From Escherichia phage vB_EcoM_WFbE185, in sequence record MK373778.1: 64,000 nt of DNA; one strand, written 5' to 3'. Made by a program: the position numbers and the translations under genes. Below the pieces are notes generated by a model. It saw only the letters and a list, made by a program, of their open reading frames with translations. It made no database searches and was not told the origin of the DNA. The first letter of the stretch is position 1. Each line of letters begins with the position of its first letter. Shown here piece after piece: positions 2,329 through 64,000 of the stretch.

Positions 2329-2598
2329 TTATTTCTGTGCAATTTTGATGTAAGTTTTCAAAATATTTTGCCAATTAGGCATACCTTCTTGGACATATGC
2401 CGGAGAACCATCTTTGTTTTTGAATGATGCAAGTTTATCAGTGGCCCAATAACCTTTAGCTCGAGCTTCAGAATCAACTTTCATCCATACTTTGTTGAAG
2501 GCATTACCATTAACTTTTGCACCATATTTTTCTACTAACTTAACTGCTTCAGCTTCCAGAACTTTTAAAGTATCTCGTAAGAAACGTGCTTTAGTCAT
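2329..2598 (-). CDS. hypothetical protein, 89 aa, at the 23/24 junction where T4 carries segD
   Basis: ORF with GGAG RBS and its own early promoter (2629-2658); no GIY-YIG motif. Confidence 0.5.
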   Translation of the reverse strand: MTKARFLRDTLKVLEAEAVKLVEKYGAKVNGNAFNKVWMKVDSEARAKGYWATDKLASFKNKDGSPAYVQEGMPNWQNILKTYIKIAQK

Positions 2599-2628
2599 TT
2601 TGTTTACTCCTCTGTAGTTGATAAGTCT

Positions 2629-2658
2629 ATAGTATCACATATCAAATACGTTGTAAAC
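2629..2658 (-). promoter_or_regulatory. early promoter (GTTTAC-N18-TACTAT) for ORF 2329-2598
   Basis: Minus strand GTTTAC then 18 nt then TACTAT, about 30 nt upstream of the ATG. Confidence 0.5.
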
Positions 2659-2664
2659 AATCTT

Positions 2665-2672
2665 TATAAATA
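2665..2672 (+). promoter_or_regulatory. late promoter (TATAAATA) for gene 24
   Basis: Exact TATAAATA 27 nt upstream of the gp24 ATG. Confidence 0.65.
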
Positions 2673-2699
2673 ATCTATATCACATAAGGAAAAAATGCA

Positions 2700-17929: not shown

Positions 17930-18223
17930 TTATTTACGGAATGAAAGGAATGCTGGTGCTCGGAATGGAGTATCATCTTTAGAGTATTTAACTAATACGA
18001 CCATTGGTACCTCTGTTTCTAAATGACCTGTCACTACACCGATAAAAATTTGATCAGTGTGCTCAGGGTCACGAAAGTTTTTAAGAGGTTCCATAGCAAT
18101 ATGGAATGCACCTGGGAATACTCGATTCAATTCGTCAATCACAGCTTCGTTAAAAACATCATCCGCTGGGATAGCATCTTCAACTACTAGTTCTTGACCA
18201 TTAAAGCGAAGCATAGATTTCAT
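17930..18223 (-). CDS. hypothetical protein (alt-upstream small ORF family)
   Basis: Start moved to ATG MKSML with GAGGAAA RBS; early promoter at 18253-18282 lies in the track extension. Confidence 0.5.
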   Translation of the reverse strand: MKSMLRFNGQELVVEDAIPADDVFNEAVIDELNRVFPGAFHIAMEPLKNFRDPEHTDQIFIGVVTGHLETEVPMVVLVKYSKDDTPFRAPAFLSFRK

Positions 18224-18252
18224 AACGTTTTCCTCATGTTGTTGATGGGATG

Positions 18253-18282
18253 ATAGTATCACACATCCATGTGTTTGTAAAC
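18253..18282 (-). promoter_or_regulatory. early promoter (GTTTAC-N18-TACTAT) with -10 inside inverted repeat GGATG/CATCC
   Basis: -35 overlaps the alt stop; -10 flanked by 5-bp inverted repeat; drives ORF 17930-18223. Confidence 0.5.
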
Positions 18283-20369
18283 TATCCTTGGATAAATTTA
18301 AACGGAACTGATTCTAAATCCATTAAAGATGCTAACAATTTCAAACCTTTAGGTGCACTAGTTTTTTCTACAAATGAGGCAAAAGATACCGGCTCATCTG
18401 ATTCGATTTCACCCGTCATAGCAACTACCTCGCCTGTTTCCATGAGAACATCACCATCGTAAATGACAGCTTCGTCCAACTGGTCCGAGGACATGACTTC
18501 AGCTTGAATAAATTTAAGGTTGGATTCTAAACCTGCACCAGTGTCAGATGACGCATCTGTAATTTTATTTATCTGCAAGAGAATGCCTCTAGGCAAAATA
18601 ATTTCTTGCTCATTAGGGTGATTACTCAACTGACCCGGATAAATCACGTTAACTTTATGGGCGCCATCAATAGCCCATCCAACGTTAACACGGATTTGTT
18701 CTGGTGCATGCATAGCTGTTCTTACTTGACTAGGAGAAATAGTAACACCTTCGTCGTTATTGTCAATGTTAAGCTCTTTGCGAACTTCTTCAGGAGCAAG
18801 TCCAAGGGCAACGTTCTCTTTAAACCCACCGAAAATAATAGGAGCTAGTGAAGTGGAAACATAGTTTCTGAAATAGAATACCTTATTTTTAACCATTGCT
18901 TCGTAAATAGGCATTCTGATAGACTGAGCTCTATATAACGTTAGTCCTTCAGGTAAACGGTCTCCATTTAAAAACGCCGAATCAAGACCATCAATAGCGC
19001 GTTTAACTTCATCTTCATCCGCAACATCGTAAAAATCTGGTTTATAACGACCTAACAACATATTATTGATATCTGTATATGCAGAAGAGGCATATTCACG
19101 AATAGCTCGTTTTTCAGAAACAGAGTATTGTTTAGGGTCCCGATTCATTGTTATATTAAAGGTGCCTCTAGCCGATTCTCGGGCATAAGTATACATCACA
19201 TTAGACAAGAACGCTGATTTACGTTGTTTCCAAGTTCTTTCAGATACTTCAGCTAAAACGTCGTCAGGCAGTTGGAAATTATCACGTCTAAAATCTTCAA
19301 ACCATTCGTCTTTAATAGAGTCTGCAATTTCATTTGCAGCTTCAACAAAAGCAGCTAATGCTTTAACAGATGTTGTTTTTTCGGTTTTAATTTTCTTAGC
19401 AAACTTTTCTAAAGTCGGCTTAATAACACCACCATAAGAAACTTCATCAGCAAATTTAAAGGATTCATCAATACGATTATAAATCTTATTTTCGATATCA
19501 GCAACTAAAGTGCCTTTTGCTGTGGACGACGCTTGGGCTAGTACTATTTCATATGCTTCAGGAAGTAATTCGGCTGTAGCTGGGCCACTAACTTCTTTAG
19601 CAGAATTTTCATATTTCTGGAATAACTCACCTTCTTGTCGGTCCGCTTCTAAAGATTGACTTGCTGCAATAGCACGACGAGAAATTTTAGTACGAGCAAT
19701 AACAGGCTTATCTTTACGTTTTTCTTCTACAGCAGCAATAGAACCAGCGATAGCCGTTTCTTTGGTGACCTTTTCGCCGGTCTTTTTACTAACATAAACT
19801 TCGCCAACATCAGAATCTACTTTCGTGTACAACTCTGTGTTAATGTTAGGGATGCCTTTAATATCTTCAATGTTGGCATTTTTACGAACCATCATCACAT
19901 AGGTGTGTTTACCTGTGAATTGATACATTGCCGACAATACTTTAAAACGACCACCGGTTTTAGTAGAAACTAAACGAGCAAGAAGAGTTTGAAGCTGTTG
20001 TCCACGTCCTTTCAATTTCTTGGTAGGGAATCGGAACAGAACTGCATCCATACGAAGAGCTTTAACTTGTTCATATACTGTATTGAAAATGGTGTTGATT
20101 GCATCAATAGGAGCAGGACCAAGGCCATTTTTCAATTCAGCGAGATTACCCTTTTCAGACAGACTCATAATAACAACATGAGCGTATTTATCGCCGAGTT
20201 TAACTTGTTTTACAGCATCGCCTTCGGAAAGGTAAGAGAATAAACGAACTACAATATTTGTATCGATATCACCAATTTTCCAGACTTGTGGAACTTTAGC
20301 TTTAGGGTTCAAATTGACGACAGGAAGACTGCCTTCAGATTCAAACACTTCATTTAATTGTTCAGACAT
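18282..20369 (-). CDS. alt: Alt ADP-ribosyltransferase (packaged into virions in T4)
   Basis: 695 aa; C-terminal block GWAIDGAHKVNVIYPG...ILPRG...LQINKITDAS matches T4 Alt; T4 synteny. Confidence 0.85.
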   Translation of the reverse strand: MSEQLNEVFESEGSLPVVNLNPKAKVPQVWKIGDIDTNIVVRLFSYLSEGDAVKQVKLGDKYAHVVIMSLSEKGNLAELKNGLGPAPIDAINTIFNTVYEQVKALRMDAVLFRFPTKKLKGRGQQLQTLLARLVSTKTGGRFKVLSAMYQFTGKHTYVMMVRKNANIEDIKGIPNINTELYTKVDSDVGEVYVSKKTGEKVTKETAIAGSIAAVEEKRKDKPVIARTKISRRAIAASQSLEADRQEGELFQKYENSAKEVSGPATAELLPEAYEIVLAQASSTAKGTLVADIENKIYNRIDESFKFADEVSYGGVIKPTLEKFAKKIKTEKTTSVKALAAFVEAANEIADSIKDEWFEDFRRDNFQLPDDVLAEVSERTWKQRKSAFLSNVMYTYARESARGTFNITMNRDPKQYSVSEKRAIREYASSAYTDINNMLLGRYKPDFYDVADEDEVKRAIDGLDSAFLNGDRLPEGLTLYRAQSIRMPIYEAMVKNKVFYFRNYVSTSLAPIIFGGFKENVALGLAPEEVRKELNIDNNDEGVTISPSQVRTAMHAPEQIRVNVGWAIDGAHKVNVIYPGQLSNHPNEQEIILPRGILLQINKITDASSDTGAGLESNLKFIQAEVMSSDQLDEAVIYDGDVLMETGEVVAMTGEIESDEPVSFASFVEKTSAPKGLKLLASLMDLESVPFKFIQG

Positions 20370-24763: not shown

Positions 24764-25129
24764 TTAGATATCAAATTCGTTAAGAACTACATCAAAGATT
24801 GCTTCGAGATGTTCAGGTTTAGCTCGGTTACTCAGGATATGACGAATCCAAGTTTTAACCAGAAGTTTACGATTAACACCATTCCAGCAAGGATGAGTAC
24901 CTAAATCACGTTGACGGAAGTCATCATCTAAAGCGATTTTGAAATTAGAACCTTCCATCGTGATTGAAACCGTGATGCCATTTTCAAATCGCATATAAAC
25001 GTAATTAGGAGTCATGCACTGTTCGATTTCACAAACTGTACCGTTTTCGTGTTTCCATAAGCAAATAACTTCAGAAGAACCAGCAATACCGTTAGAAACA
25101 TATTTACGTTCGAAGTTGATGTAGTTCAT
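24764..25129 (-). CDS. hypothetical protein (30.x cluster)
   Basis: 121-aa ORF with its own early promoter at 25171-25199. Confidence 0.5.
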   Translation of the reverse strand: MNYINFERKYVSNGIAGSSEVICLWKHENGTVCEIEQCMTPNYVYMRFENGITVSITMEGSNFKIALDDDFRQRDLGTHPCWNGVNRKLLVKTWIRHILSNRAKPEHLEAIFDVVLNEFDI

Positions 25130-25170
25130 TTTATTCTCCAGATGTTTAAGTTGTTTGTTGGTACAGGTCT

Positions 25171-25199
25171 ATAATAACATAACCTGTACCAAAGTAAAC
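25171..25199 (-). promoter_or_regulatory. early promoter (GTTTAC-N17-TATTAT) with -10 inside 8-bp inverted repeat GGTACAGG/CCTGTACC
   Basis: Drives ORF 24764-25129; inverted repeat arms at 25160-25167 and 25183-25190. Confidence 0.5.
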
Positions 25200-25203
25200 T
25201 GTT

Positions 25204-25572
25204 TTATGCAACTTTAATCCAATTGTCTAAATTTAAAACACCTTTGGCTTTCATTTTTTCGATCAGGTTATCTGCTGTAATGCGTCCATTTTGATACCAT
25301 GTAACATCTTCAGAGTAACCAGTTTCTTCGTCAACATATGTTTCTGAACGAATTTTACCGGTAATAATAGTTTTTAATTCGTATGTGTCACCTGTGAAAA
25401 AGTTTGCTAACACAATTTTCCAAGAGAAATCATCAGAAGGACCTTCAGGGGTCATACAACCTACGAACTCAAATTGCTCTTTGTATAACATCCACTGGAA
25501 TTCTTTAATTTCGATAGCTTTATAACCGTCGTGGTCTTTACATTTGATGTATGAGTTCAGATTGATTTTCAT
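25204..25572 (-). CDS. hypothetical protein (30.x cluster)
   Basis: 122-aa ORF with early promoter at 25615-25643. Confidence 0.5.
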   Translation of the reverse strand: MKINLNSYIKCKDHDGYKAIEIKEFQWMLYKEQFEFVGCMTPEGPSDDFSWKIVLANFFTGDTYELKTIITGKIRSETYVDEETGYSEDVTWYQNGRITADNLIEKMKAKGVLNLDNWIKVA

Positions 25573-25614
25573 TTTGTTCTCCGGTTTGTTTTATTGATTA
25601 GGTGGTACAAGTCT

Positions 25615-25643
25615 ATAGTAACACATCCTACAGGAGAGTAAAC
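25615..25643 (-). promoter_or_regulatory. early promoter (GTTTAC-N17-TACTAT) for ORF 25204-25572
   Basis: Located just downstream of terminator hairpin 25680-25697. Confidence 0.5.
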
Positions 25644-25679
25644 ATCTTTTTAAACTTTTTCTGCCCTAAACGCACAAAA

Positions 25680-25697
25680 GGGAGACCGAAGTCTCCC
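25680..25697 (-). terminator. terminator after the 59-aa ORF
   Basis: GGGAGAC-UUCG-GUCUCCC followed by UUUUGUGCGUUU on the minus strand. Confidence 0.55.
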
Positions 25698-28932: not shown

Positions 28933-29169
28933 TTATAGTGTTCCATATACTCGAGTTGCTTCAACAAGACCATCACTGCCTAATTTAAGATTAGTAATTT
29001 GGTCACCATCTTTAGGATTAACGATTATGAGAAAAGAACGTGGAGATTCTTGAATAACTCGTAATGTTGCATCTTGGAAACGTTCAGACACTTTATTGAT
29101 GAGTGCTTGAGCAAATTCTTTTACTTTAATCTGAAATTCGTGTACTGTAATTGGGTTTTCACTTAGCAT
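28933..29169 (-). CDS. hypothetical protein, first gene after an early promoter
   Basis: 78-aa ORF; hairpin-embedded early promoter at 29198-29227. Confidence 0.45.
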   Translation of the reverse strand: MLSENPITVHEFQIKVKEFAQALINKVSERFQDATLRVIQESPRSFLIIVNPKDGDQITNLKLGSDGLVEATRVYGTL

Positions 29170-29197
29170 TTCTATTTCCTCATTTGTTGGTAGAGTT

Positions 29198-29227
29198 ATA
29201 GTATCACAACTCTACCATGTTGTAAAC
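29198..29227 (-). promoter_or_regulatory. early promoter (GTTTAC-N18-TACTAT) with -10 inside 9-bp inverted repeat; heads the transcription unit containing DAHP synthase and cd
   Basis: Inverted repeat GGTAGAGTT / AACTCTACC (29189-29197 and 29208-29216) brackets the -10. Confidence 0.5.
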
Positions 29228-29229
29228 CA

Positions 29230-29505
29230 TTAAATTGCTTTGCATTCAATTTTTTGTGTACCGAAATTGATATCACATTGGATAACTAAATCGCCGTCAA
29301 GATCAAATACCACGATGACGTGTGCAGACCCAGGGAGAAGAGTAATAGCAATAGAATCTACTTGGTCTGGGAGCAAAGCATTGAGTACATGAGTTACTTG
29401 AGCATGAACTCTGAGTTCGGCTGCATTATTAAGCACTTCAAACATATTATTAGCAATAATCTGACTGAAGACTACCTTTACAATTTCAGAATAAGTTGGG
29501 AACAT
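29230..29505 (-). CDS. hypothetical protein (cd-pseT interval)
   Basis: 91-aa ORF, compact minus-strand array. Confidence 0.45.
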   Translation of the reverse strand: MFPTYSEIVKVVFSQIIANNMFEVLNNAAELRVHAQVTHVLNALLPDQVDSIAITLLPGSAHVIVVFDLDGDLVIQCDINFGTQKIECKAI

Positions 29506-31759: not shown

Positions 31760-32058
31760 TATTTTATTCCTAAGAAAGTTTCAAGAATACGAATGTTATG
31801 CTCGCGCCGGTCTTTATTAATTTCAGCAACGTTTTTATTAATTGACGTACTTCTAACGTTTGAAGAAATAAATTTAATCATATGACTTTTGAGTTGTTGC
31901 AAATCCAACCCTTTTTCTTTAGCAGCTTTACGAAGAGCTTTACCTGCTTCATCTAGTGCCTTTGCTGCATCTTTGTCATAATTGACAAGTGACATTCCAC
32001 GGCAGATATCAATATACTCGTCAGACCGTTTGATGTAATTCTCTAGTAATGTTTTCAT
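31759..32058 (-). CDS. hypothetical protein
   Basis: 99-aa ORF preceded by a hairpin-embedded early promoter (32087-32116). Confidence 0.5.
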
Positions 32059-32086
32059 TTAGATTTCCTCAATTATCCATAGGAGC

Positions 32087-32116
32087 ATTATACTCTGCTC
32101 CCGAGAGTTTGTAAAC
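32087..32116 (-). promoter_or_regulatory. early promoter (GTTTAC-N18-TATAAT) with -10 inside inverted repeat GGAGCA/TGCTCC
   Basis: Core 18-mer GAGCATTATACTCTGCTC (plus-strand text) recurs at 61403-61420; drives ORF 31759-32058. Confidence 0.5.
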
Positions 32117-32340
32117 TATTTTACTAAAGATTCAATATACTCATGAAGAGCTTTAGTCGCTACTGCCCACTTATTCTGATATTCATTTTTCAGATTAGCA
32201 CGAGACTGAACTAACAAGCGGTCATTAGTCGGAGGCAAAGATTCTAATCGTTGAATCTGGCGTCCATAAATCATAGCCGCCATTTCAGATTCATAGATAA
32301 GCCCTTTAATGTATTCATGCTGTTCTTTAGTCATTGGCAT
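32116..32340 (-). CDS. hypothetical protein
   Basis: 74-aa ORF downstream of the spanin pair. Confidence 0.45.
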   Translation of the reverse strand: MPMTKEQHEYIKGLIYESEMAAMIYGRQIQRLESLPPTNDRLLVQSRANLKNEYQNKWAVATKALHEYIESLVK

Positions 32341-32974: not shown

Positions 32975-33462
32975 GTTTGAATAATCTCAATGATTTCGTC
33001 TCGGGATAATCCATTGATAAGAACTGTTTTAGGCCCGTCAGTTTGGATTTTGTATGATTCAAACAATACACACAACTCTTCTGCTGTATGATATGGGCTT
33101 GAGATTCCGAGACGGTTGAATTTGTCGGTAAGAGGGTCGCAAATAATATAGAATTTGATACCTGCGATATGTACGTTTGGTTGACTAATATTAATGAACA
33201 CATTAGCGTCATATTTAGTCAAATTGTTTTGAAGAAATTCTACCATAGCATTAACTGCTTCTGGCATCGCTTCGCGTTTCTCTTCAGCGTATCGGGTTGA
33301 ATACTCTTTTTGTTTTACTTTCTTTTTAAGATTTTTGGCCAGTGTAACACGTAGGTCAGTAAGATAACCAACTGGACGTCCTTTCTTAAAGACCCGGATT
33401 CCGTCAGTTGTGTCTCCAAAAGCGTTTACGACCATATCGTTAGTAATCAATTGCATATTCAT
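32962..33462 (-). CDS. alc: Alc, inhibitor of host (C-containing DNA) transcription
   Basis: From MNMQLITNDMVVNAFGDTTDGIRVFKKGRPVGYLTDLRV matches T4 Alc; GAGGAG RBS; track extension contains the promoter. Confidence 0.8.
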   Translation of the reverse strand: MNMQLITNDMVVNAFGDTTDGIRVFKKGRPVGYLTDLRVTLAKNLKKKVKQKEYSTRYAEEKREAMPEAVNAMVEFLQNNLTKYDANVFINISQPNVHIAGIKFYIICDPLTDKFNRLGISSPYHTAEELCVLFESYKIQTDGPKTVLINGLSRDEIIEIIQTCLK

Positions 33463-33491
33463 AATTTTCTCCTCGTGTTGTTGATAAACCC

Positions 33492-33521
33492 ATAGTATCA
33501 CCATCCTTGGTGTTTGTAAAC
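33492..33521 (-). promoter_or_regulatory. early promoter (GTTTAC-N18-TACTAT) for alc
   Basis: -10 lies 30 nt upstream of the alc ATG; spacer contains CACC...GGTG inverted repeat. Confidence 0.5.
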
Positions 33522-33523
33522 CG

Positions 33524-34657
<1,134 letters not shown>

Positions 34658-34674
34658 TCAGTTAGTTTTTTTAA

Positions 34675-34704
34675 ATTGTACCACAATCCTTGTGGTATGT
34701 AAAC
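34675..34704 (-). promoter_or_regulatory. early promoter (GTTTAC-N18-TACAAT) for rnlA
   Basis: -35 overlaps the denA stop; spacer contains CCACAA/TTGTGG inverted repeat. Confidence 0.45.
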
Positions 34705-35114
34705 TACTTTTTCTTATGTTGGATATTCCAAGGCGGGTTGAACTTTTTGATAAAAAGTGGTTCTTCAAGGTCCATTGTTGCGATGGTCATTGAACCAAGT
34801 TCGTTGGTGACTGAAAGGTCAAAACATTGGCGGGCCCAGAATTCAACCTTTTTGCCTTGCATTAAGGCATCCAAAATCATAAGTGATTTTCTTGAATCTG
34901 AAGTCTGGTCTTTTCGATTTATGGCTGTTCGATAATAGTTAATGCGTTTCTTTAAATTCTTGGTTTTACCAATATACACAAGTTCGTCATCTATAGCAAT
35001 AGCATATATGACATTTTTCTTATTAGGGACATCAACTGTTTTAATTGTTGCATCTTCTAATAGCTCCAATTCTGTATATTTAATAAAGGAATATTCGGCG
35101 GCGATATCTTTCAT
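34704..35114 (-). CDS. denA: endonuclease II
   Basis: 136 aa; MKDIAAEYSFIKYTELEL...VIYAIAIDDELVYIGKTKNL matches T4 DenA. Confidence 0.92.
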   Translation of the reverse strand: MKDIAAEYSFIKYTELELLEDATIKTVDVPNKKNVIYAIAIDDELVYIGKTKNLKKRINYYRTAINRKDQTSDSRKSLMILDALMQGKKVEFWARQCFDLSVTNELGSMTIATMDLEEPLFIKKFNPPWNIQHKKK

Positions 35115-41081: not shown

Positions 41082-41330
41082 TTATTTCCTCAGATTTTTC
41101 TTAACAACTTTCCAATCAACTTTAAACGATTCAACATCAGAGTGGTGAATCCAGAATCCTGCACTTTCACCATCTTCGTAGAGTGGACATCCATCGCATT
41201 CTTCGTTCCAACCCATTTCACGTAAAGCTTCTTCAGCTTGTTCAAGGAGTTCAGCGTCTTTACCGACGATGTTGAAGTACCATTTACCTCTAACTTCCGA
41301 ATCTTTGATGCTCTGGCGTTGCAATCTCAT
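41082..41330 (-). CDS. hypothetical protein (frd.2-like)
   Basis: 82-aa ORF with early promoter at 41365-41394. Confidence 0.5.
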   Translation of the reverse strand: MRLQRQSIKDSEVRGKWYFNIVGKDAELLEQAEEALREMGWNEECDGCPLYEDGESAGFWIHHSDVESFKVDWKVVKKNLRK

Positions 41331-41364
41331 TTTATTCTCCTCTTCACTTTTATTTTATAGGGCT

Positions 41365-41394
41365 ACTATAACATAGCCCTATCTTGTTATAAAC
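41365..41394 (-). promoter_or_regulatory. early promoter (GTTTAT-N18-TATAGT) with -10 inside inverted repeat GGGCTA/TAGCCC
   Basis: Drives ORF 41082-41330. Confidence 0.45.
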
Positions 41395-41786
41395 TACTTT
41401 TTAAAAGTTTTTTGCAAAAGTTTGATGATTTCGTCGACGTTAGTTTCATCCACGATACAATGGATTTTTGTTACACCTAAAGTTATACCTTCGTTAGTAG
41501 GTTGAGGCTTTACTAAATCTACCTCAGTAAAGTATTTGAACTCGTCAGGATAAATCTCAAAATAAGTTTCAATTTCACCACCGGCAGAACATACAGTACC
41601 ATCTTCCATAGTTACACTTACTACGTTTGACGTATCGCTATCATAATCAGGTTCCATTCCGTTTACAACAAAACTAGGCCCGTGGAGTTCAATCAATTTT
41701 AACATCTTAGCGTTATTATGTGGTGCTTCTTGAACAAAGTCGTCTTTAAATAAAGGGTTAATGATATAAGATTTTCCGATTTCCAT
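41394..41786 (-). CDS. hypothetical protein (frd.3-like)
   Basis: 130-aa ORF with early promoter at 41816-41844. Confidence 0.5.
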   Translation of the reverse strand: MEIGKSYIINPLFKDDFVQEAPHNNAKMLKLIELHGPSFVVNGMEPDYDSDTSNVVSVTMEDGTVCSAGGEIETYFEIYPDEFKYFTEVDLVKPQPTNEGITLGVTKIHCIVDETNVDEIIKLLQKTFKK

Positions 41787-41815
41787 TTTGATTTCCTCAT
41801 GTTGTTGATAGGTCT

Positions 41816-41844
41816 ATACTAACACATCCAGGGAAGAAGTAAAC
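41816..41844 (-). promoter_or_regulatory. early promoter (GTTTAC-N17-TAGTAT) for ORF 41394-41786
   Basis: Immediately downstream of the gene 32 terminator. Confidence 0.45.
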
Positions 41845-41875
41845 AACTTTTTCGGCAATTTACAGATACTCAAAA

Positions 41876-41893
41876 GGGAGACCGAAGTCTCCC
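41876..41893 (-). terminator. terminator after gene 32
   Basis: GGGAGAC-UUCG-GUCUCCC followed by UUUUGAGUAU. Confidence 0.6.
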
Positions 41894-44835: not shown

Positions 44836-45753
44836 TCAGAATTCATTAATTACACTTGTTAATTTAGAAAGACCAGATTTTACAAAATATGAATAAATCT
44901 TGCCTTTAGGTTGTTGTTTATATGAGTTATAATACTCTATAATGGTTGAAGCAATATTATCAGGGATATAATCAAAATCAATGAGAACCAAATTTTCTTG
45001 ATACCGTTTATATTCTTCTGCACTTAATAATACTTCAGCTTGAGAACGGTCATTGGCAATTGCTTCAATAATCGATGTTTTCATGCTCGGAGTTCGTTCA
45101 CCATCAACTCTGGTAAACCAGAAGTCGCCACGAACTCGAACAGATGCAACACCATCCTTACGGTCACCTTTAAGAATTTTAGTCATGCAATCAATTTCAG
45201 CAGAACCATTCTTAATTTTAACCCATTTTTTCTGTGGTGGCGACCACTGTTTAACGTTAGGATATTTGTGTAATTGTGTAAAGTCACCATCTGATGCAAC
45301 AATACATACTTTATGTCCAGCTAATGACAAATATTTAGTTAATACACCGATATGGTCATCCGCTTCATACTTGTCAATATCCATTACAACGTATGGCATG
45401 TATTTCTTAATCTCATCAACAACTTGATGGAGTGCAGTAAAATATCCTTCCCAATCCCACTTTGAAGCTTCACGATCGGTTTTACGATTTTTCTTGTAAT
45501 AGTAAGCAAAGTCACGACGCCAATAACCCGAAGTAGCATTATCCATACACAATACAAATTTTGTATAGCCTTGCTTACGGAACATCACTACGTTTTTACG
45601 AATTGAATTCAAGATTACATGGCGAACCATCGGAACGGTAATTTTATCGCCGTCTTCAAAGTTGTTTAATGCGGCTGCCAATGCAATGTTACTAAAGTCA
45701 GCAAGTGCAATACCTTCTTTGTAATCTTCATCCAACATCATTTCTAGATCCAT
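44836..45753 (-). CDS. rnh: RNase H (5'-3' exonuclease, FEN family)
   Basis: 305 aa; MDLEMMLDEDYKEG... matches T4 RNase H. Confidence 0.92.
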   Translation of the reverse strand: MDLEMMLDEDYKEGIALADFSNIALAAALNNFEDGDKITVPMVRHVILNSIRKNVVMFRKQGYTKFVLCMDNATSGYWRRDFAYYYKKNRKTDREASKWDWEGYFTALHQVVDEIKKYMPYVVMDIDKYEADDHIGVLTKYLSLAGHKVCIVASDGDFTQLHKYPNVKQWSPPQKKWVKIKNGSAEIDCMTKILKGDRKDGVASVRVRGDFWFTRVDGERTPSMKTSIIEAIANDRSQAEVLLSAEEYKRYQENLVLIDFDYIPDNIASTIIEYYNSYKQQPKGKIYSYFVKSGLSKLTSVINEF

Positions 45754-45785
45754 ATGAACCTCTTGTTCAGTTAGTCAACTTGTCT

Positions 45786-45815
45786 ATAGTAACACACTCA
45801 TTTGAAAGCGTAAAC
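45786..45815 (-). promoter_or_regulatory. early promoter (GTTTAC-N18-TACTAT) for rnh, back-to-back with the gene 34 late promoter
   Basis: -35 ends 3 nt before the plus-strand TATAAATA. Confidence 0.5.
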
Positions 45816-45818
45816 TGG

Positions 45819-45826
45819 TATAAATA
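45819..45826 (+). promoter_or_regulatory. late promoter (TATAAATA) for genes 34-35
   Basis: Exact TATAAATA 30 nt upstream of the gp34 ATG. Confidence 0.7.
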
Positions 45827-45856
45827 AGTATTATTGAAACAATAAAGGAAAAACGA

Positions 45857-50873: not shown

Positions 50874-50891
50874 GGGAGACTTCGGTCTCCC
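50874..50891 (+). terminator. terminator after gene 35
   Basis: GGGAGAC-UUCG-GUCUCCC followed by AUUUUUG; the gene 36 late promoter follows. Confidence 0.6.
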
Positions 50892-50898
50892 ATTTTTG

Positions 50899-57771: not shown

Positions 57772-58097
57772 TTAAACCATCCTTTAATACGTTGCCACAA
57801 AGTTTTCTGCTGAGCTTTGTTAACACCAATTGAACGAATAACCGGTTGTGACTGCTGATATTCTTTATAATCTTCTTTATAGATTTCGTAAGCTGCATCA
57901 ACAAATGAACTGATCGCTGCCATGTAGTTTTTACGAAGGCCAAATGGTGCGTCATTATTTTCACGAATAACCGTATATTGGCCTGCTTTAATCTTTACAA
58001 TTGTCCCTAAATAAGCCCCGTGGTACCAAATATCCCATCCTTCCTGAGTAGGTTCTGCACATTTACGAAGTTCGTTAATAATATTCAGCTTATTCAT
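57768..58097 (-). CDS. hypothetical protein, 109 aa
   Basis: ORF immediately downstream of motA. Confidence 0.5.
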
Positions 58098-58107
58098 TAT
58101 GTATTCC

Positions 58108-58740
58108 TCACAGTACGTTAGTTACAAGGGTAATGATTTCTTTGGACACATTAGGGAAGTCAATGTAAGTATATTTACCACCGATCTTAATCTTAACATC
58201 ATTTTCAAGAGAAGTAAACAGTTTTGATTCAGTTTCTGACATGTTGTATGCAAAGATTCTAAGAGCGCCATCTCGACGAATTTCGATCTGACGAATACCT
58301 AGAACTCGTTTTGCAAATCGAACTTCTAAGTTACTACGGTTTTCACCAATTTCTTTAACTTCAACTTTATCTTTAATATTTTCAAAAACAAAGTTTGCTA
58401 GTTCATGCATTTCAGGAGTAACTCCACGTGCTTTTCTGGTGTTACGTTTCTGAAGAAGTTCTGGAGCATTTTCTTGAGCAAATAGGTCTGCAGCTTTTTG
58501 GATAATATCCATTGCTTCGCCTGTTGCTATAAGTCCATCACCGGATTTTTCGACTAAACCTTTCTTAATCAATACACCAATGTTAGAGTTAACAACCGAC
58601 GCATTGTATTCTGCTTCCAGAGCTTCACGGACATTGGCAGCAGTGGTGAAGTTATTCTTAATGATATAAACCATTATTGCAGCAGTTTTTTCATTCAGAG
58701 CGTTTTCAGAAGCTTTGATGATGTAAGTAACTTTAGACAT
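58108..58740 (-). CDS. motA: MotA middle-transcription activator
   Basis: 210 aa; MSKVTYIIKAS...NSNIGVLIKKGLVEKSGDGLI matches T4 MotA. Confidence 0.9.
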   Translation of the reverse strand: MSKVTYIIKASENALNEKTAAIMVYIIKNNFTTAANVREALEAEYNASVVNSNIGVLIKKGLVEKSGDGLIATGEAMDIIQKAADLFAQENAPELLQKRNTRKARGVTPEMHELANFVFENIKDKVEVKEIGENRSNLEVRFAKRVLGIRQIEIRRDGALRIFAYNMSETESKLFTSLENDVKIKIGGKYTYIDFPNVSKEIITLVTNVL

Positions 58741-58806
58741 TTTATTTCTCCAAATTAGTATTTGTTTTGATAGGTCTATAATATCATGTTTGAAGCAAAA
58801 GTAAAC
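58732..58806 (-). repeat. promoter/RBS/start cassette, copy 1 (motA)
   Basis: 36-nt stretch 58761-58796 identical to 59083-59118; 19-nt RBS-plus-start stretch 58732-58750 identical to 59052-59070. Confidence 0.7.
58778..58806 (-). promoter_or_regulatory. early promoter (GTTTAC-N17-TATTAT) for motA
   Basis: Part of a duplicated promoter/RBS cassette (second copy 59100-59128). Confidence 0.5.
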
Positions 58807-58844
58807 TTTATTTTGGGCTCTTTTTCCAAAAGCCCTGGTAAAAT

Positions 58845-59060
58845 TTACAAACTCATTTCTTTAATAAGGCCAATAAGTTTTGCCTTTTTAGAACGAAGCT
58901 TTTCTAAATGATGTCCATTTGAACCGCGAACCACTAAAGAATTGATTTCAACTTCTAAGAAATTTAATTCTTCAACAAGTGCTTTACGGGGAGCATTCAT
59001 ACCAGGTTTAACTTTACCGAAACGAGTAGTTGTGTTTTGGGTTAATTTCATTTTAGACAT
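58845..59060 (-). CDS. hypothetical protein (motA.1-like)
   Basis: 71-aa basic ORF; promoter and RBS near-identical to motA. Confidence 0.5.
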   Translation of the reverse strand: MSKMKLTQNTTTRFGKVKPGMNAPRKALVEELNFLEVEINSLVVRGSNGHHLEKLRSKKAKLIGLIKEMSL

Positions 59061-59128
59061 TTTATTTCTCCAATTTGGTTGTTTTGTTTTGATAGGTCTA
59101 TAATATCATGTTTGAAGCACGTGTAAAC
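59052..59128 (-). repeat. promoter/RBS/start cassette, copy 2 (motA.1-like)
   Basis: See copy 1; both ORFs begin ATG TCT AAA. Confidence 0.7.
59100..59128 (-). promoter_or_regulatory. early promoter (GTTTAC-N17-TATTAT) for motA.1-like ORF
   Basis: 36-nt identity with the motA promoter copy. Confidence 0.5.
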
Positions 59129-59154
59129 TGTTTTGTGAGGAAAAAATGCACAAA

Positions 59155-59170
59155 GGGAGCTTCGGCTCCC
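59155..59170 (-). terminator. terminator after gene 52
   Basis: GGGAGC-CGAA-GCUCCC followed by UUUGUGCAUUUUUUCC on the minus strand. Confidence 0.55.
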
Positions 59171-59246
59171 TAATCATGTTTGTCCAACCAATATAGCCAA
59201 ATCACTAGTGCAGCTATTGCACTGAGAAATCCTAAGGCTAAGGCAC

Positions 59247-60572
59247 TCAAAGTGCCTCCAAGTCTTTAGTGTACTCTGTCACAACATCAGTAGACTTCCA
59301 ATACTCATTTTCTTCTTTCTTAGCTTTAGCTTCTTCTGCTAGTTTACGTGCTTCATCGGAAGTGATATGGAAGATGTTAAGACCTACCAGTTTATCGACA
59401 TGTTCTTTATACATTTCGATTTGTGCTAGCTCTTCAGTCAAAGCTTTACGAGTCTTGCCCTGAATCACAATTTCACCGTTGATAACTTTTTTGATGAAGT
59501 GTGCCTTAGCAAAAGCAAGTTTAAATGCTTTTTCAGATTCAAGGATTTTGTTGTCAATACGTTTCTGAACGTAAGTCTTACGGACTTCAACAAAATCTTT
59601 GATTAAGTCCACTACGTTATCATAGACAGCTAATTTACCCTTTTCATTAATCACTGTGATGTTTTGTGAACGACGTTCGATGAGACTAAAATCTTTCATG
59701 ATTTTTTCATGACGTAGCTCTTCATCATCAGGAAGCGAGTACTCTTTACGGAACTTCACCTTAAACCCAAAGCCGTGTTCACCACAATCATCTTCCCATG
59801 AGATTAGACCTTTGTCTTCCAACGGGTCAAGAACCTTACTCACATACGTTTCACGGTCGAATTTATATGGGATTTCAGTTATCTGCATTTGAGTGCGAGA
59901 TGTGAACTTATACGTTCCGTGAATCTCATAACGCCCATCAACTTCATGTACTTCACCACGGAATTCCGGGAATTCAACTTTTGGCTTAGTGACATTTTTA
60001 CCTTGAAGAGCTTGTAATACAGCCTTTTTGACTGATTTAAAACTATGAGGCAGAATATTTGTTGCGTAACCGGTTGCAATACCAGAGACGCCATTCAAAA
60101 GAACTGTCGGAATAATAGGAAGATAGAATTTTGGTGGAATGTGTTCTTTATCTTCATGAGCTGGAGCATATTCAGTATCTTTATATACGTTATAGAAATT
60201 TTTACTTACACGAGCAAAAATATAACGAGATGCTGCAGCTTTTTGGACTGTTCGAGAACCAAAGTTGCCTTGGCCATCTAACAGTGGATAGTTGTTGTTC
60301 CATGTGTTAGCCATCAATGCACCTGCATCTTGTGCAGAAGATTCACCATGGTGATAACCTAAATCTGCAACACCGCCTGCAATTGACGCAAGTTTATGAA
60401 ATTTTTCTTTATTACCACGAGCCAAATCTAACGCACGATGGACCACAAAACGTTGAACCGGCTTAAATCCATCAATCATGTTTGGGATTGCACGGTTTTC
60501 AACGGTGTACATCGCATATGCTAAGGCTTCGTTATCAATAATACTTTTTAGATTACGAGAATTCAATTGCAT
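59247..60572 (-). CDS. 52: DNA topoisomerase II medium subunit gp52
   Basis: 441 aa; MQLNSRNLKSIIDNEALAYAMYTVENRAIPNMIDGFKPVQR matches T4 gp52. Confidence 0.95.
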   Translation of the reverse strand: MQLNSRNLKSIIDNEALAYAMYTVENRAIPNMIDGFKPVQRFVVHRALDLARGNKEKFHKLASIAGGVADLGYHHGESSAQDAGALMANTWNNNYPLLDGQGNFGSRTVQKAAASRYIFARVSKNFYNVYKDTEYAPAHEDKEHIPPKFYLPIIPTVLLNGVSGIATGYATNILPHSFKSVKKAVLQALQGKNVTKPKVEFPEFRGEVHEVDGRYEIHGTYKFTSRTQMQITEIPYKFDRETYVSKVLDPLEDKGLISWEDDCGEHGFGFKVKFRKEYSLPDDEELRHEKIMKDFSLIERRSQNITVINEKGKLAVYDNVVDLIKDFVEVRKTYVQKRIDNKILESEKAFKLAFAKAHFIKKVINGEIVIQGKTRKALTEELAQIEMYKEHVDKLVGLNIFHITSDEARKLAEEAKAKKEENEYWKSTDVVTEYTKDLEAL

Positions 60573-60576
60573 ATTT

Positions 60577-60717
60577 TCACCATATTAATGAACGAATAAC
60601 CATTATAACATCTGAAATGAAAAGCACTACTTGGATTAGTCCAAACATCACACCGTAGTACAGAACCGTAAGCAACAACAAGAGCCCGAAGGCTCCTGCT
60701 AAGATTTTCTTAATCAT
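60577..60717 (-). CDS. small hydrophobic membrane peptide, 46 aa (T4 ac/stp/52.1 region)
   Basis: Manual translation MIKKILAGAFGLLLLLTVLYYGVMFGLIQVVLFISDVIMVIRSLIW; TAATG overlap with upstream peptide ORF; below track size cut-off. Confidence 0.35.
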   Translation of the reverse strand: MIKKILAGAFGLLLLLTVLYYGVMFGLIQVVLFISDVIMVIRSLIW

Positions 60718-60863
60718 TACTCGCCTTTTAACACGTTAAGAAGAGCTAAGACCGCTAAGGTACCTTGTGATACGGCCTGTTGAAATACTGTTGTTTCGCC
60801 TGTAACTAAAGTGTTAACGAATAAAAACGACCAACACAGCAATGCAATAATCCATGCTATCAT
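60717..60863 (-). CDS. small hydrophobic membrane peptide, 48 aa
   Basis: Manual translation MIAWIIALLCWSFLFVNTLVTGETTVFQQAVSQGTLAVLALLNVLKGE; GAGGT RBS 8 nt upstream. Confidence 0.35.
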   Translation of the reverse strand: MIAWIIALLCWSFLFVNTLVTGETTVFQQAVSQGTLAVLALLNVLKGE

Positions 60864-60887
60864 TTTAATTACCTCAAAAATAAATTA

Positions 60888-60907
60888 AAGGCCCAACTTA
60901 ATAGGCC
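60888..60907 (-). terminator. terminator after ndd
   Basis: AGGCC-N10-GGCCU hairpin followed by UUAAUUUAUUUUUG on the minus strand. Confidence 0.45.
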
Positions 60908-60915
60908 TATATAAA

Positions 60916-61362
60916 TTAGTAACTCTGCAGAATGAATTTGAAATTATCAGCCAGAAGACGGTTCATTTCAGTGAGTGTTTGATATTCTGATGTATGGTTG
61001 CGAGTGAATGCCAGAGCCAATTGACCTTTACCATAACCAGTGGTCAGTGGTTTCATGTTCTTAGCTGCAACAAAGATTACGTCATATTCAATATTGTTAG
61101 TGCCCATGGTACGGGCTAGTTGCGAACGGCCTTGACGAATGTGAGAAAGAATTGCATCCAACCCTTGTTTAGAACGTTGACGTCCTACAAAGAATCGAGC
61201 TGCTACTTGTCGCCAATCAGATGAACCTTTAACGAAGAAGTAAAAACCTTCACGAGAACGAAACTCTTTAGAAACTTCAGAACCGTATTCGCCATTACAA
61301 ACTACTGCAACAACTTCACCGCCAACTGCCAGAAGGTCTTTACGAGTTAAATATTTGGACAT
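60916..61362 (-). CDS. ndd: nucleoid disruption protein Ndd
   Basis: 148 aa; [13 protein letters not shown]...[14 protein letters not shown]...[21 protein letters not shown]...[10 protein letters not shown] matches T4 Ndd. Confidence 0.85.
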
Positions 61363-61406
61363 GCTAATTTCCTCAATTGATTAATGTTTTTGTAATCCAT
61401 GAGAGC

Positions 61407-61436
61407 ATTATACTCTGCTCTCAAGAGTTTGTACAA
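61407..61436 (-). promoter_or_regulatory. early promoter (TTGTAC-N18-TATAAT) for ndd, -10 inside inverted repeat GAGAGCA/TGCTCTC
   Basis: Near-duplicate of the 32087-32116 cassette. Confidence 0.45.
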
Positions 61437-61438
61437 TT

Positions 61439-61639
61439 TTATTCGGCCATATCAGAACGTTCAAAAAGCTCTTCAACAGTTAAACATTCAGTGTCATCTT
61501 CAATAAAGAATCGAGTCCAACACGTTGGGGCGATACAGTTATGAGTTTGTCCGGCGATAGAAGCTACACGAATAAGCTGCTGACCGTTATTCAGAACAAA
61601 TTTTTCACCAATTTCAACATCTTTAAAAAGCTTAGCCAT
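61439..61639 (-). CDS. hypothetical protein (ndd.x-like)
   Basis: 66-aa ORF with GAGGAA RBS and early promoter at 61668-61697. Confidence 0.45.
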   Translation of the reverse strand: MAKLFKDVEIGEKFVLNNGQQLIRVASIAGQTHNCIAPTCWTRFFIEDDTECLTVEELFERSDMAE

Positions 61640-61667
61640 TTTGTGTTCCTCATGTTTCAGTAGGACT

Positions 61668-61697
61668 ACTATACCATAATCCTACCTTGTTGTAAAC
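61668..61697 (-). promoter_or_regulatory. early promoter (GTTTAC-N18-TATAGT) with -10 inside inverted repeat TAGGA/TCCTA
   Basis: Drives ORF 61439-61639; similar to the 62180-62209 cassette. Confidence 0.45.
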
Positions 61698-61889
61698 AAT
61701 TAAATTACATTAAAATATGTTAAAGCCAACCATGTTCCAGTGAACGAACATGCGATGTAAAACCACGCATCACAAATTGTTCTTAGTACAATAAGAAGTG
61801 CATTTTTCATAAGTACCTCAACACAATTGAAAATATTATACAAATCATTGGGATACTAAGCAACCATATTCCTATCCACATTTTAGAGC

Positions 61890-62153
61890 TCATATCTCAA
61901 CTTCCGCGAGTTCCATATATCCTTTGTTGATAACCTCTTTAAGGTCTTTAGAAAGAATAACACCAAAATGGTCGTTCATATGTCCATTAACTAAACGAGT
62001 TATTTCGGCTTCAGATGACATATAAGGCACGTCTGAGTCCCAATGAGATAGTCCCAAATGGGTATAAATCATCCCTTCGTCATCTGCAGTGTTGTACATT
62101 GAAACAAATTCGCCTGTTACTTTATGTTTTGCGTAGAAAAATTTAAATTTCAT
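61890..62153 (-). CDS. hypothetical protein (ndd.x-like)
   Basis: 87-aa ORF with early promoter at 62180-62209. Confidence 0.45.
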   Translation of the reverse strand: MKFKFFYAKHKVTGEFVSMYNTADDEGMIYTHLGLSHWDSDVPYMSSEAEITRLVNGHMNDHFGVILSKDLKEVINKGYMELAEVEI

Positions 62154-62179
62154 GATGTTATCCTCTTTTAGATAGGACT

Positions 62180-62209
62180 ACTATATCATAGTCCTACTTA
62201 GTTGTAAAC
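62180..62209 (-). promoter_or_regulatory. early promoter (GTTTAC-N18-TATAGT) with -10 inside inverted repeat TAGGACT/AGTCCTA
   Basis: Drives ORF 61890-62153; lies just downstream of the denB stop. Confidence 0.45.
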
Positions 62210-62221
62210 ACTTTTGTGAAA

Positions 62222-62779
62222 TTAAAGATGAAGATACCACCCGTTGTAGTTGCTCTTGCGGACGATTTTCTTTAGGTCTTCATGGTCTCCCACGAACTTT
62301 ATAGAATAAGAGAAGACGTCAGGTGAGGTTTCTTTGACATCTAATATAATAATGCAATCTGCGACTCGATGGTTCAAGAAGGGCCCTATATTGATTCCAT
62401 TACCACCCGGATAATCACCACTGTATCCTGTGGTAACCGAAATCCATTTCGAATCCATCTGATGGGTCTTTACTTCTACGCGTAGACCACAGTACTTAGG
62501 ATGAGCTAAAACGTCCCATGCATACGTGTACGGGTCTTCTACGTCTTCATTACCTTTATTAACATATCCGTCTAGCCAATTTGCTACTACATACTCTGCA
62601 AAGACTGCAACCTTACAACGTCGAACAACGTCTTCTTTTATTTGACCTGGATCTTGTTTCAACGAGTACCGAGCAGTATCAGCGATCTTAACCTTCATTT
62701 CGCTAGTCAAAAACTCATTCGTCAGGATAAATGTCGGAAGACTCTTCAGCCTCAACAGCCCCAAGTTCGTCTTTACCAT
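62222..62779 (-). CDS. denB: endonuclease IV (DenB)-like protein
   Basis: Start ATG MVKTNLG with GAGGT RBS gives 185 aa, the T4 DenB length; position between ndd and rIIB; no sequence confirmation possible here. Confidence 0.65.
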   Translation of the reverse strand: MVKTNLGLLRLKSLPTFILTNEFLTSEMKVKIADTARYSLKQDPGQIKEDVVRRCKVAVFAEYVVANWLDGYVNKGNEDVEDPYTYAWDVLAHPKYCGLRVEVKTHQMDSKWISVTTGYSGDYPGGNGINIGPFLNHRVADCIIILDVKETSPDVFSYSIKFVGDHEDLKKIVRKSNYNGWYLHL

Positions 62780-63002
62780 AGATACCTCTGATGTGTAGTT
62801 CGCCAAAATAAATGCGGTCACCTTCTTCAAGATATTCTGCATCTACAGGCGGAATTTCAATAACAACTTCGTCGCATTCTAACCAGCCGTAGTGTGCATC
62901 GCCAGGATGTTTTACCAATTTAGCACAATAAACTGATTTACACTTATGATGACCACGAAGATTAGCAATTTTGGATTCTGATACGTCAAATGGATGAATC
63001 AT
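62715..63002 (-). CDS. hypothetical Cys/His-containing protein, 95 aa, overlapping denB by 65 nt
   Basis: ATG start after the rIIB terminator; acidic C-terminus; no equivalent recalled between T4 rIIB and denB. Confidence 0.45.
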   Translation of the reverse strand: MIHPFDVSESKIANLRGHHKCKSVYCAKLVKHPGDAHYGWLECDEVVIEIPPVDAEYLEEGDRIYFGELHIRGIYGKDELGAVEAEESSDIYPDE

Positions 63003-63022
63003 AATTACCCCTAAAGAAAAAA

Positions 63023-63038
63023 GGGGACCGAAGTCCCC
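63023..63038 (-). terminator. terminator after rIIB
   Basis: GGGGAC-UUCG-GUCCCC followed by U6 on the minus strand. Confidence 0.6.
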
Positions 63039-63043
63039 AATTA

Positions 63044-63991: not shown

Positions 63992-64000
63992 AATGTTTCC

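Follow-up and report, generated by a model that had tools for sequence, protein, structure and literature searches.

Repeated early-promoter cassettes, most with a stem-loop, bound indels and ORF swaps in Mosigvirus and related phages

Near-identical stretches of DNA lie upstream of ndd and of several other genes in Escherichia phage vB_EcoM_WFbE185 (MK373778.1), and they raise the question of what these repeats are and what their likeness does to the genome. An earlier note, made from 64,000 nucleotides of this phage (herein the window), had read them as duplicated promoter cassettes that would co-regulate the attached genes and act as substrates for homologous recombination. The window comes from a Mosigvirus, an RB69-like T4-type phage: Mosigvirus phages (the RB69 group) are ∼98% identical to it, and over positions 58000-64000 many Escherichia and Shigella phages of this genus show 97-98.5% identity. 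The G+C content of the genome is 37.7%. In annotated relatives rIIB, denB, ndd, ac, gene 52, and motA all lie on the minus strand, and the region around 32,077 falls within the rnlA-alc-Rz-pseT block. The earlier note quoted plus-strand text; every feature described here is on the minus strand.

All three of the repeat pairs previously reported exist, and each copy immediately precedes an ORF. There are exactly two occurrences of the 18-mer GAGCATTATACTCTGCTC (32083-32100 and 61403-61420), even when three mismatches are allowed, against an expectation of 0.00 in shuffled sequences. Its flanks are alike as well; 32077-32116 and 61397-61436 are identical at 34 of 40 positions, and a 46-nt alignment of the pair gives 85% identity (repeat family D8). 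The motA pair shares longer exact runs than the 36-mer and 19-mer first described, namely a 37-mer at 58761 and 59083 and a 22-mer (TTTAGACATTTTATTTCTCCAA) at 58732 and 59052, the latter spanning the first three codons, the spacer, and the Shine-Dalgarno (SD) sequence. The third pair, 61661-61697 and 62173-62209, is identical at 33 of 37 positions, with a longest exact run of 13. Identity is not confined to the promoter hexamers; it reaches the spacer, the hairpin arms, the leader, and the first codons. When all 16 cassettes of the window are compared with one another (73 aligned positions), the three named pairs stand at 66 to 71% identity and other pairs mostly at 36 to 60%; a few unnamed pairs also reach 64 to 68%.

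The 16 cassettes are all on the minus strand, each 5′ of an ORF (Table 1), and share one order of elements: an A-rich tract, GTTTAC, 16 to 17 nt, TGn, TAnnnT, a short leader, the SD sequence, and ATG. The −35 element is GTTTAC(A/T) at −36 to −31, with G at −36 in 15 of the 16 and TTTAC nearly invariant; the exception is the ndd copy, which is degenerate (TTGTACA). The spacer measures 17 nt in 11 cassettes and 16 nt in 5, and TGn precedes the −10 box in 14, the pair formed by 32092 and ndd having GAG instead. Around −40 to −44 there is an UP-like tract; from 9 to 4 nt upstream of TTTAC, each of the six positions is A in 9 to 13 of the 16 cassettes (AAA occurs within the tract in 11/16). Downstream, a motif AGnCCTA is shared after the −10 box, the distance from −10 to ATG is 26 to 44 nt, and a GAGG or GGAG SD sequence lies on the coding strand. 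Across the set the near-invariant positions are −36 to −31, TGn, −12, −11, and −7. The −35 sequence, the −10 box at a spacing of 16 to 18 nt, the A-rich UP-like tract, and the position 5′ of an ORF in the right orientation are the traits of a T4-type early promoter (Pe), for which a consensus is available (Hinton 2010, PMC2988021).

A generic σ70 scan returned the cassettes as the top-scoring matches in their regions (9 to 11 of 12 positions); the total number of matches was not above that in shuffled sequences (20 vs. 19.9), so that only the ranking singles the cassettes out. Orthology is more specific. All 15 cassettes that fall inside the RB69 stretch compared correspond to early promoters predicted in that phage (Nolan et al. 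2006, PMC1524935, Additional file 3), and most of those mapped, including all those named in the earlier note, are identical to their RB69 counterparts at 46 to 55 of 54 to 55 positions. The RB69 promoters have the same UP/−35/TGn/−10 architecture at orthologous sites, and in the annotation of phage NBG1 the site orthologous to cassette 32092 is labeled “promoter.” On the grounds of anatomy, σ70 ranking, and RB69 orthology, the repeats are T4-type σ70 early promoters, as the earlier note had supposed in calling them promoters, with activity and start sites predicted from consensus and orthology. The genes downstream of the cassettes include ndd, motA, and their neighbors. The ORFs behind the cassettes matched no Pfam family, in keeping with what is expected of ORFans from hyperplastic regions.

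Table 1. Early-promoter cassettes of the window and associated features (positions are those of the window; Pe, RB69 early promoter)
Feature	Span	Strand	−35	−10	SD; ATG	Hairpin or repeat	Fold, kcal/mol; z	Counterpart or remark
ndd early-promoter cassette (61412)	61360..61455	−	TGTACA 61430-61435 (degenerate; T for G at −36)	TATAAT 61407-61412	GAGG 61371-61374; ATG 61360-61362	TGAGAGCA 61416-61423 and TGCTCTCA 61400-61407, enclosing −10	−13.9; −3.99	Orthologue of Pe:165022
Sister cassette (32092), 5′ of 99-aa ORFan 31759-32058	32056..32135	−	TTTACA 32110-32115	TATAAT 32087-32092	SD 32067-32070; ATG 32056-32058	GGAGCA 32096-32101 and TGCTCC 32082-32087, plus outer G·U pair	−12.2; −2.22	Pe:136687, 55/55 identical
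ndd.1 cassette (61673)	61637..61716	−	61691-61696	TATAGT 61668-61673		GUAGGAUUA / UAGUCCUAC, one sense-strand G·U pair	−13.6; −3.04	Pe:165283
Cassette (62185) of RB69ORF270c-like ORF (61890-62153)	62151..62228	−	62203-62208	TATAGT 62180-62185		TAGGACTA 62189-62196 and TAGTCCTA 62173-62180	−13.2; −3.30	Pe:165795
512-bp repeat period between cassettes 61673 and 62185	61661..62172	.				Repeat family D6 spacing		Holds 87-aa ORF and small ORF
motA cassette	58738..58825	−	TTTACT 58800-58805 (spacer 16)	TATTAT 58778-58783	GGAG 58748-58751; ATG 58738-58740	None over −10; GC-rich hairpin 9 nt upstream of −35	z −0.19 over −10	Matches Pe:162713
Cassette of 71-aa ORF	59058..59171	−	59122-59127	TATTAT 59100-59105	ATG 59058-59060	Canonical terminator hairpin AGGGAGCCGAAGCUCCCU 59154-59171, 26 nt upstream of −35		Best match of Pe:162713, 52/54
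71-aa ORFan	58845..59060	−						With one cassette, a ∼320-bp module
Cassette 41370, same −10-hairpin class (family D6)	41328..41413	−		TATAGT 41365-41370		ATAGGGCTA and TAGCCCTAT around −10	−15.4; −4.77	Pe:145300
cd.2-type cassette (29203)	29167..29246	−		TACTAT 29198-29203		10-bp arms TGGTAGAGTT and AACTCTACCA around −10	−17.2; −5.48	Pe:134561
30.7-type cassette (25176)	25127..25218	−		TATTAT 25171-25176		11-bp arms TTGGTACAGGT and ACCTGTACCAA around −10	−17.9; −4.40	Pe:131670
Composite unit, terminator then early promoter	25570..25697	−		25615-25620		Terminator hairpin GGGAGACTTCGGTCTCCC, then T run		Family D13
Second copy of composite unit	41784..41893	−		41816-41821		Terminator, 23 nt, 41871-41893, identical to that of 25570-25697		Family D13
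Cassette with spacer hairpin	34646..34723	−		TACAAT 34675-34680		CCACAAggaTTGTGG	z −2.01	Pe:139277
Cassette with weak spacer hairpin	33460..33540	−		33492-33497		CACCAaggaTGGTG		Pe:138093
Cassette with imperfect inverted repeat	18221..18301	−		18253-18258		ATGGATG / CATCCCAT		Pe:125323
Cassette with 6-bp arms	2596..2677	−		2629-2634		TTGATA and TATCAA		Family D2
Cassette without significant hairpin	45751..45834	−		45786-45791				Pe:149309

The 18-mer is also an inverted repeat (GAGCA..TGCTC) around the −10 hexamer, which sits in the loop, a property that the earlier note had overlooked. A hairpin encloses the −10 box in 7 of the 16 cassettes (62185, 61673, 61412, 41370, 32092, 29203, and 25176), with fold energies of −12 to −18 kcal/mol and z scores of −3.0 to −5.5 in six of them and −2.2 in 32092. 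Elsewhere the hairpin lies in the spacer (two cassettes, one of them weak) or upstream of −35 (four), and three cassettes have a weak hairpin or none. The four upstream hairpins, all in cassettes lacking one over the −10 box, are GC-rich and lie 9 to 36 nt from −35; three are of the canonical tetraloop type and one is weaker. The −10 hairpins and the upstream hairpins appear complementary (0/7 vs. 4/9), a distribution that is suggestive in numbers too small for significance.

The arms of the hairpins are promoter-specific (TAGGACTA, GAGAGCA, GGTAGAGTT, TTGGTACAGGT, GCTGATTGAGTGT, and others), and orthologous promoters in different genera retain a hairpin whose arms are unrelated in sequence. 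At ndd the arms are CGAGAATCA / TGGTTCTCG in JS98 vs. TGAGAGCA / TGCTCTCA in the window; at the MNYxNFERKYV gene the promoter arms are TTGGTACAGGT, GCTGATTGAGTGT, or GGTGAGGGTCT depending on the phage, with the hairpin retained; and the orthologues of the 30.7-type cassette in other genera likewise have unrelated arms. The T4 orthologue of the cd.2-type cassette, Pe133307, has the same arms with one G·U pair. A pool of 44 nonredundant promoters was drawn from the window, from T4, and from about 20 T4-like loci of IMG/VR, the T4-like set coming from an IMG/VR search with PseT together with GenBank phage records; a search of IMG/VR with the Ndd protein gave three loci, and a PseT alignment in one metagenome gave four, two of them relevant. 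Perfect stems of at least 8 bp flank the −10 box in 9 of the 44 promoters, compared with 0.5% for noncognate pairings of arms. When 12 distinct cassettes that share one geometry are compared, pairing accounts for 92.6% of cells (slid controls, 33 to 51%), a figure inflated because the 12 sequences were chosen for having hairpins, and both partners have changed at six of the nine stem pairs. Of eight stem-internal mismatches on the sense strand, five are G·T and none is A·C, which points to a structure in sense RNA or in sense-strand DNA.

Several roles known for promoter-associated hairpins do not fit those over the −10 box. Because the 3′ arm ends at about +1, transcripts that start at the cassette lack the hairpin, which could form in read-through RNA alone. 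In T4 e, soc, 49, and I-TevI, a late or middle internal promoter sits within a hairpin whose 3′ arm masks the ribosome-binding site, and this hairpin is found solely in the longer transcripts that start upstream. The likeness lies in the promoter within a stem-loop, in upstream transcripts that hold the whole hairpin, and in transcripts of the embedded promoter that lack the 5′ arm. In the window, however, the SD sequence is well downstream of the 3′ arm and outside the hairpin, and we rejected the sequestering scheme for that reason. The promoters of the phage N4 virion RNA polymerase present a promoter element in a hairpin with a 3-nt loop to a dedicated virion polymerase on single-stranded DNA; the loops in the window instead hold a canonical σ70 −10 box at the correct distance from −35, in duplex geometry. 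Like intrinsic terminators, the window's hairpins are stable, intergenic, and present in sense RNA, but no U run follows any of the −10 stems (tails UCUAAAAG, UGAAACAU, AUGGAUUA, UAAAAUAA, AACAAAUG, and ACAAACAA), and they were rejected as intrinsic terminators. A GC-rich stem with a U tract directly after it is found only in the separate upstream elements at 59154-59171, 41871-41893, and 25675-25697, where GGGAGNC-tetraloop hairpins precede T runs.

Comparison with related genomes, which the earlier note had suggested as a check on recombination, revealed deletions and indels bounded by these cassettes. Among ∼153 Mosigvirus records that cover query positions 61300-62300, JM10 spans this region in 489 bp rather than 1,001. 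The 512 bp absent from JM10, a deletion that rests on one assembly, equal the exact period between cassettes 61673 and 62185, and JM10 carries a single chimeric cassette in which the 62185-type −35 element and hairpin are joined to the 61673-type leader and ORF. The junction is at the edge of the hairpin; the crossover is placed no finer than within the cassette.

A second polymorphism lies at motA. For query positions 58450-59450, 75 records give full cover, and a group of similar size matches 76% of the query, split into two pieces over ∼680 bp. Between gene 52 and motA, the 71-aa ORF and one cassette are missing from about half of ∼152 Mosigvirus records. RB69 is among them, with a single motA cassette against two in the window, and so is mar008P4, whose one cassette is a mosaic of both window copies. 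Records with the 71-aa ORF number 76 in Mosigvirus and 17 in Dhakavirus; JS98 has it at the same locus, and its presence there in Dhakavirus suggests that the two-cassette state is probably ancestral and the single-cassette state a loss. The name motA.1, which the earlier note gave to this ORF (58845-59060), has to be dropped: no similarity to T4 MotA.1 was detected, and the ORF is a homologue of JS98 orf253. Within a genome the paralogous cores of the two motA cassettes agree at 42 of 45 positions (window) or 43 of 45 (JS98), vs. 40 of 45 for orthologous cores between the genera, while the flanks follow orthology. This signal, which comes from two sites, hints at homogenization of the cores by gene conversion. 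The motA pair is recombinant although it has no hairpin over the −10 box.

Cassettes have also been joined to different genes. A cassette of the form GGGAGCA..TATAAT..GCTCC, common to the 32092 and ndd sites of the window, is fused at the SD/ATG to three different ORFs in Dhakavirus-like loci, with the break in homology at the start codon. Conversely, orthologous genes (e.g., the cd.3-like gene) have different cassette types in different phages. The sites of the window's cassettes are kept in position and sequence across >150 genomes. Indels and ORF swaps in relatives are bounded by the cassettes; the direction of each indel, deletion or insertion, we infer from an outgroup. With natural indels bounded by two of the three repeat pairs, and the third type of cassette fused to three different ORFs, the proposal that the repeats serve as substrates for recombination gains support.

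We consider it highly probable that the repeats are σ70 early-promoter expression cassettes, mostly with one stem-loop, that serve as crossover points in recombination. Host RNA polymerase would fire the cassettes right after infection, so that ndd, ndd.1, motA, and several ORFans behind them would be expressed together early; the sequence is consistent with co-regulation, which the earlier note had predicted, as early genes. In read-through RNA the −10 hairpin would most likely act as an attenuator or a 3′-end stabilizer, by analogy with related phages (Arbiol et al. 2010, PMC2839356); termination there would be hypothetical, as no U run follows the stem. The exact runs of 13 to 37 nt shared by the copies, in direct orientation, suggest that the efficient homologous recombination of the phage uses the cassettes as crossover points, and we infer ordinary homologous recombination rather than a dedicated enzyme. 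Such crossovers would delete, insert, or swap the ORF between or behind the cassettes and would also homogenize neighboring copies.

The hairpins might instead act in DNA, as an extruded hairpin or cruciform or a structure at the replication fork (for example, the target of a structure-specific nuclease or a site of template switching) that initiates recombination or modulates promoter melting. The position of the JM10 junction at the hairpin edge would suit this reading, and G·T is the least destabilizing mismatch in DNA too. But stems of 6 to 11 bp with loops of 6 to 13 nt are short for cruciform extrusion, and the motA pair recombines without such a hairpin; the asymmetry of G·T over A·C (5 vs. 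0) fits RNA, although single-stranded DNA of the sense strand gives the same pattern. We regard an action at the DNA level as unlikely. We are similarly doubtful that the −10 hairpins, in DNA or in nascent RNA, control the early promoters (e.g., contribute to their abrupt early shut-off) or initiate recombination between cassettes through a structure-specific activity; either role would account for pairing that is kept from genus to genus in arms whose sequence is free to vary.

The likeness of the cassettes could also have arisen by convergence, each promoter having been optimized independently for Escherichia coli RNA polymerase with neither common descent nor recombination. T4 early promoters are known for an extended consensus, and both the near-invariance of the polymerase-contacted positions across the 16 cassettes and the AGnCCTA motif after the −10 box could be explained in this way. 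The identity within pairs, however, covers nonconsensus spacer, pair-specific arms, leader, and first codons, with exact 18-, 37-, and 22-mers; the same cassette stands before ORFs that are not related to one another, and orthologous genes differ in the type of cassette they carry. There are hybrid and single-cassette genomes, and the junctions in JM10 and at the motA module largely refute convergence, which we regard as very improbable.

An inverted repeat around the −10 box could alternatively be an operator, bound for instance by a dimeric phage repressor that shuts off the early promoters; a dyad over the −10 box is in the classic operator position, and how T4 shuts off its early promoters is still said not to be understood. 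Yet the arms are wholly different between promoters, with pairing kept by compensatory changes and G·U wobbles, and 9 of the 16 early promoters have no dyad over the −10 box. Arms that are free to change while pairing is kept are the signature of a nucleic-acid structure rather than of one protein's site, and we rejected the operator of a dimeric protein as scarcely credible. Chance matches in an AT-rich genome (37.7% G+C), in which generic promoter-like sequences are as frequent as in shuffles, are refuted by the zero expectation for the 18-mer, the exact 37-mer, and the conservation of the sites in >150 genomes.

Cassettes of promoters and hairpins that are proposed to act as crossover points have been described before. 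Promoter-early stem-loop (PeSL) cassettes are known from RB49 and phi1 (Arbiol et al. 2010, PMC2839356) and from T4/PST and KVP40/nt-1 (Comeau et al. 2014, PMC4122927), and both studies propose that they drive the shuffling of modules by recombination; the ndd-denB region is the worked example of PeSL-mediated exchange in the latter. The commonest positions of the stem-loop are between −35 and −10 or over −10, with G-T pairs, in five positional subclasses (PMC2839356), while Comeau et al. (2014, PMC4122927) place it “just upstream” of the promoter. For RB49/phi1, the formation of mini-circles and termination by one stem-loop (reporter assay) have been shown experimentally (PMC2839356). The cassettes of the window and PeSLs have in common a strong σ70-type promoter with an AT-rich upstream tract and the SD/ATG at its 3′ end; a stem-loop with G-T pairs that may overlap the −10 box, occupy the spacer, or lie upstream; clustering by small ORFans in hyperplastic regions such as ndd-denB; and insertions, deletions, and replacements between close relatives. 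They differ in that the stems of the window are promoter-specific and not of RB49's G-run/C-run type, and in that the −35 element is GTTTAC (T4/RB69 type), not TTGACA. With a stem-loop in or near the promoter, a covarying stem with G-T pairs, and adjoining indels of small ORFs, the cassettes are PeSLs at the level of sequence; promoter strength and roles in termination and mini-circle formation would be taken over from other T4-type phages. Only deletion products reciprocal to mini-circles were seen, in JM10 and in the motA-module genomes.

We first took the −10 hairpin for a new feature because Comeau et al. (2014) place the stem-loop “just upstream” and because it did not come up in term searches of Nolan, Hinton, and Uzan. 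These searches found no mention of inverted repeats around −10 in Nolan et al. (2006, PMC1524935), Hinton (PMC2988021), or the Uzan review, nor of pairwise near-identity of early promoters in Nolan et al. (2006, PMC1524935) or Hinton (2010, PMC2988021), and a full-text literature search for a hairpin, cruciform, or inverted repeat at T4 early promoters gave nothing relevant. Arbiol et al. (2010, PMC2839356) nevertheless describe stem-loops that overlap −10, and the idea of novelty was abandoned. The phenomenon, and even the orthologous sites, are already in the literature; in the PeSL and early-promoter literature examined we found no PeSL catalogue for RB69-like phages.

The results leave current understanding unchanged and extend it to a further T4 lineage, Mosigvirus, in which promoter-plus-hairpin cassettes would be units of early expression and seams for the gain, loss, and exchange of small accessory genes. 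New here are two clean natural examples, the 512-bp deletion and the ∼320-bp module polymorphic in about half of the genus. They may help in annotating such phages and in engineering therapeutic ones, since the cassettes are predictable points of deletion and insertion. A fourth repeated pair, which the earlier note had missed, consists of the terminator-plus-promoter units at 25570-25697 and 41784-41893.

Comparison of all 16 early-promoter cassettes in the window reveals that in most of them the six positions following the -10 hexamer (+1 to +6) carry a conserved A-G-n-C-C-T motif. In several of the hairpin cassettes (seven have an inverted repeat enclosing the -10 box) this motif is itself the 3' arm of the hairpin; therefore the 5' arm, located in the spacer, has apparently evolved as the complement of a conserved promoter-proximal motif. 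Read on the plus (antisense) strand, the hairpin of cassette 62185, upstream of an RB69ORF270c-like ORF, precedes a T-rich tail and was flagged as terminator-like; it might also serve as a stop for antisense transcription.

In the ndd cassette the -35 is weakened (TTGTACA in place of GTTTACA) and TGn is absent. Its RB69 orthologue (Pe:165022, predicted by Nolan et al. 2006) has a low HMM score of 18.2, the neighbouring sites scoring 37.9 and 40.3. The ndd cassette may be a degenerating copy of a cassette of the type at 32092, which precedes a 99-aa ORFan. A promoter scan of T4 found no early promoter immediately upstream of ndd.

T4 has a near-identical cassette family of its own (gtggTACTATacaactatcaactactgatac; T4 record positions 167062, 163649 and 146851), whose members precede different genes, motA among them; the orthologous motA genes of T4 and Mosigvirus thus carry cassettes of different types. 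For the neighbouring ORF, named motA.1 in the earlier note, similarity to T4 MotA.1 was not detectable. It is a 71-aa ORFan common to the window and Dhakavirus (JS98 orf253); RB69 lacks it, as do about half of Mosigvirus genomes.

To the three cassette pairs listed in that note a fourth can be added, comprising two composite terminator-promoter units with 16 kb between them. Both contain an identical 23-nt terminator hairpin (CAAAAGGGAGACCGAAGTCTCCC, plus-strand text) located 32-36 nt upstream of the -35, and their two early promoters are alike.

Window coordinates of the cassette elements, hairpins and repeats
Feature	Position	Strand
Composite unit, first	25570-25697	
Composite unit, second	41784-41893	
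-35 of ndd cassette	61430-61436	
Hairpin of cassette 62185	62173-62196	
71-aa ORFan	58845-59060	
GC-rich tetraloop hairpin	2296-2325	
GC-rich tetraloop hairpin	20405-20424	
GC-rich tetraloop hairpin	50869-50898	
GC-rich tetraloop hairpin	60676-60695	
GC-rich tetraloop hairpin	63017-63039	
472-aa ORF	5677-7095	minus
Tandem duplication	6239-6814	minus
Interleaved repeat families	47135-48132	plus

Dispersed through the window, the GC-rich tetraloop hairpins form a family (GAGCCCGAAGGCTC, GGGGACCGAAGTCCCC, GGGAGACTTCGGTCTCCC) that probably represents intrinsic terminators, some of which could act bidirectionally.

A 288-nt tandem duplication (76% identity) lies within an ORF whose 472-aa product has repeated units of ~96 aa; judged by sequence, these appear similar to the Ig-like domain repeats of the outer capsid protein Hoc. 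The 44-48 nt repeats of two interleaved families, spaced 66-375 nt apart, map by offset to RB69 coordinates within gene 34 (proximal long tail fibre).
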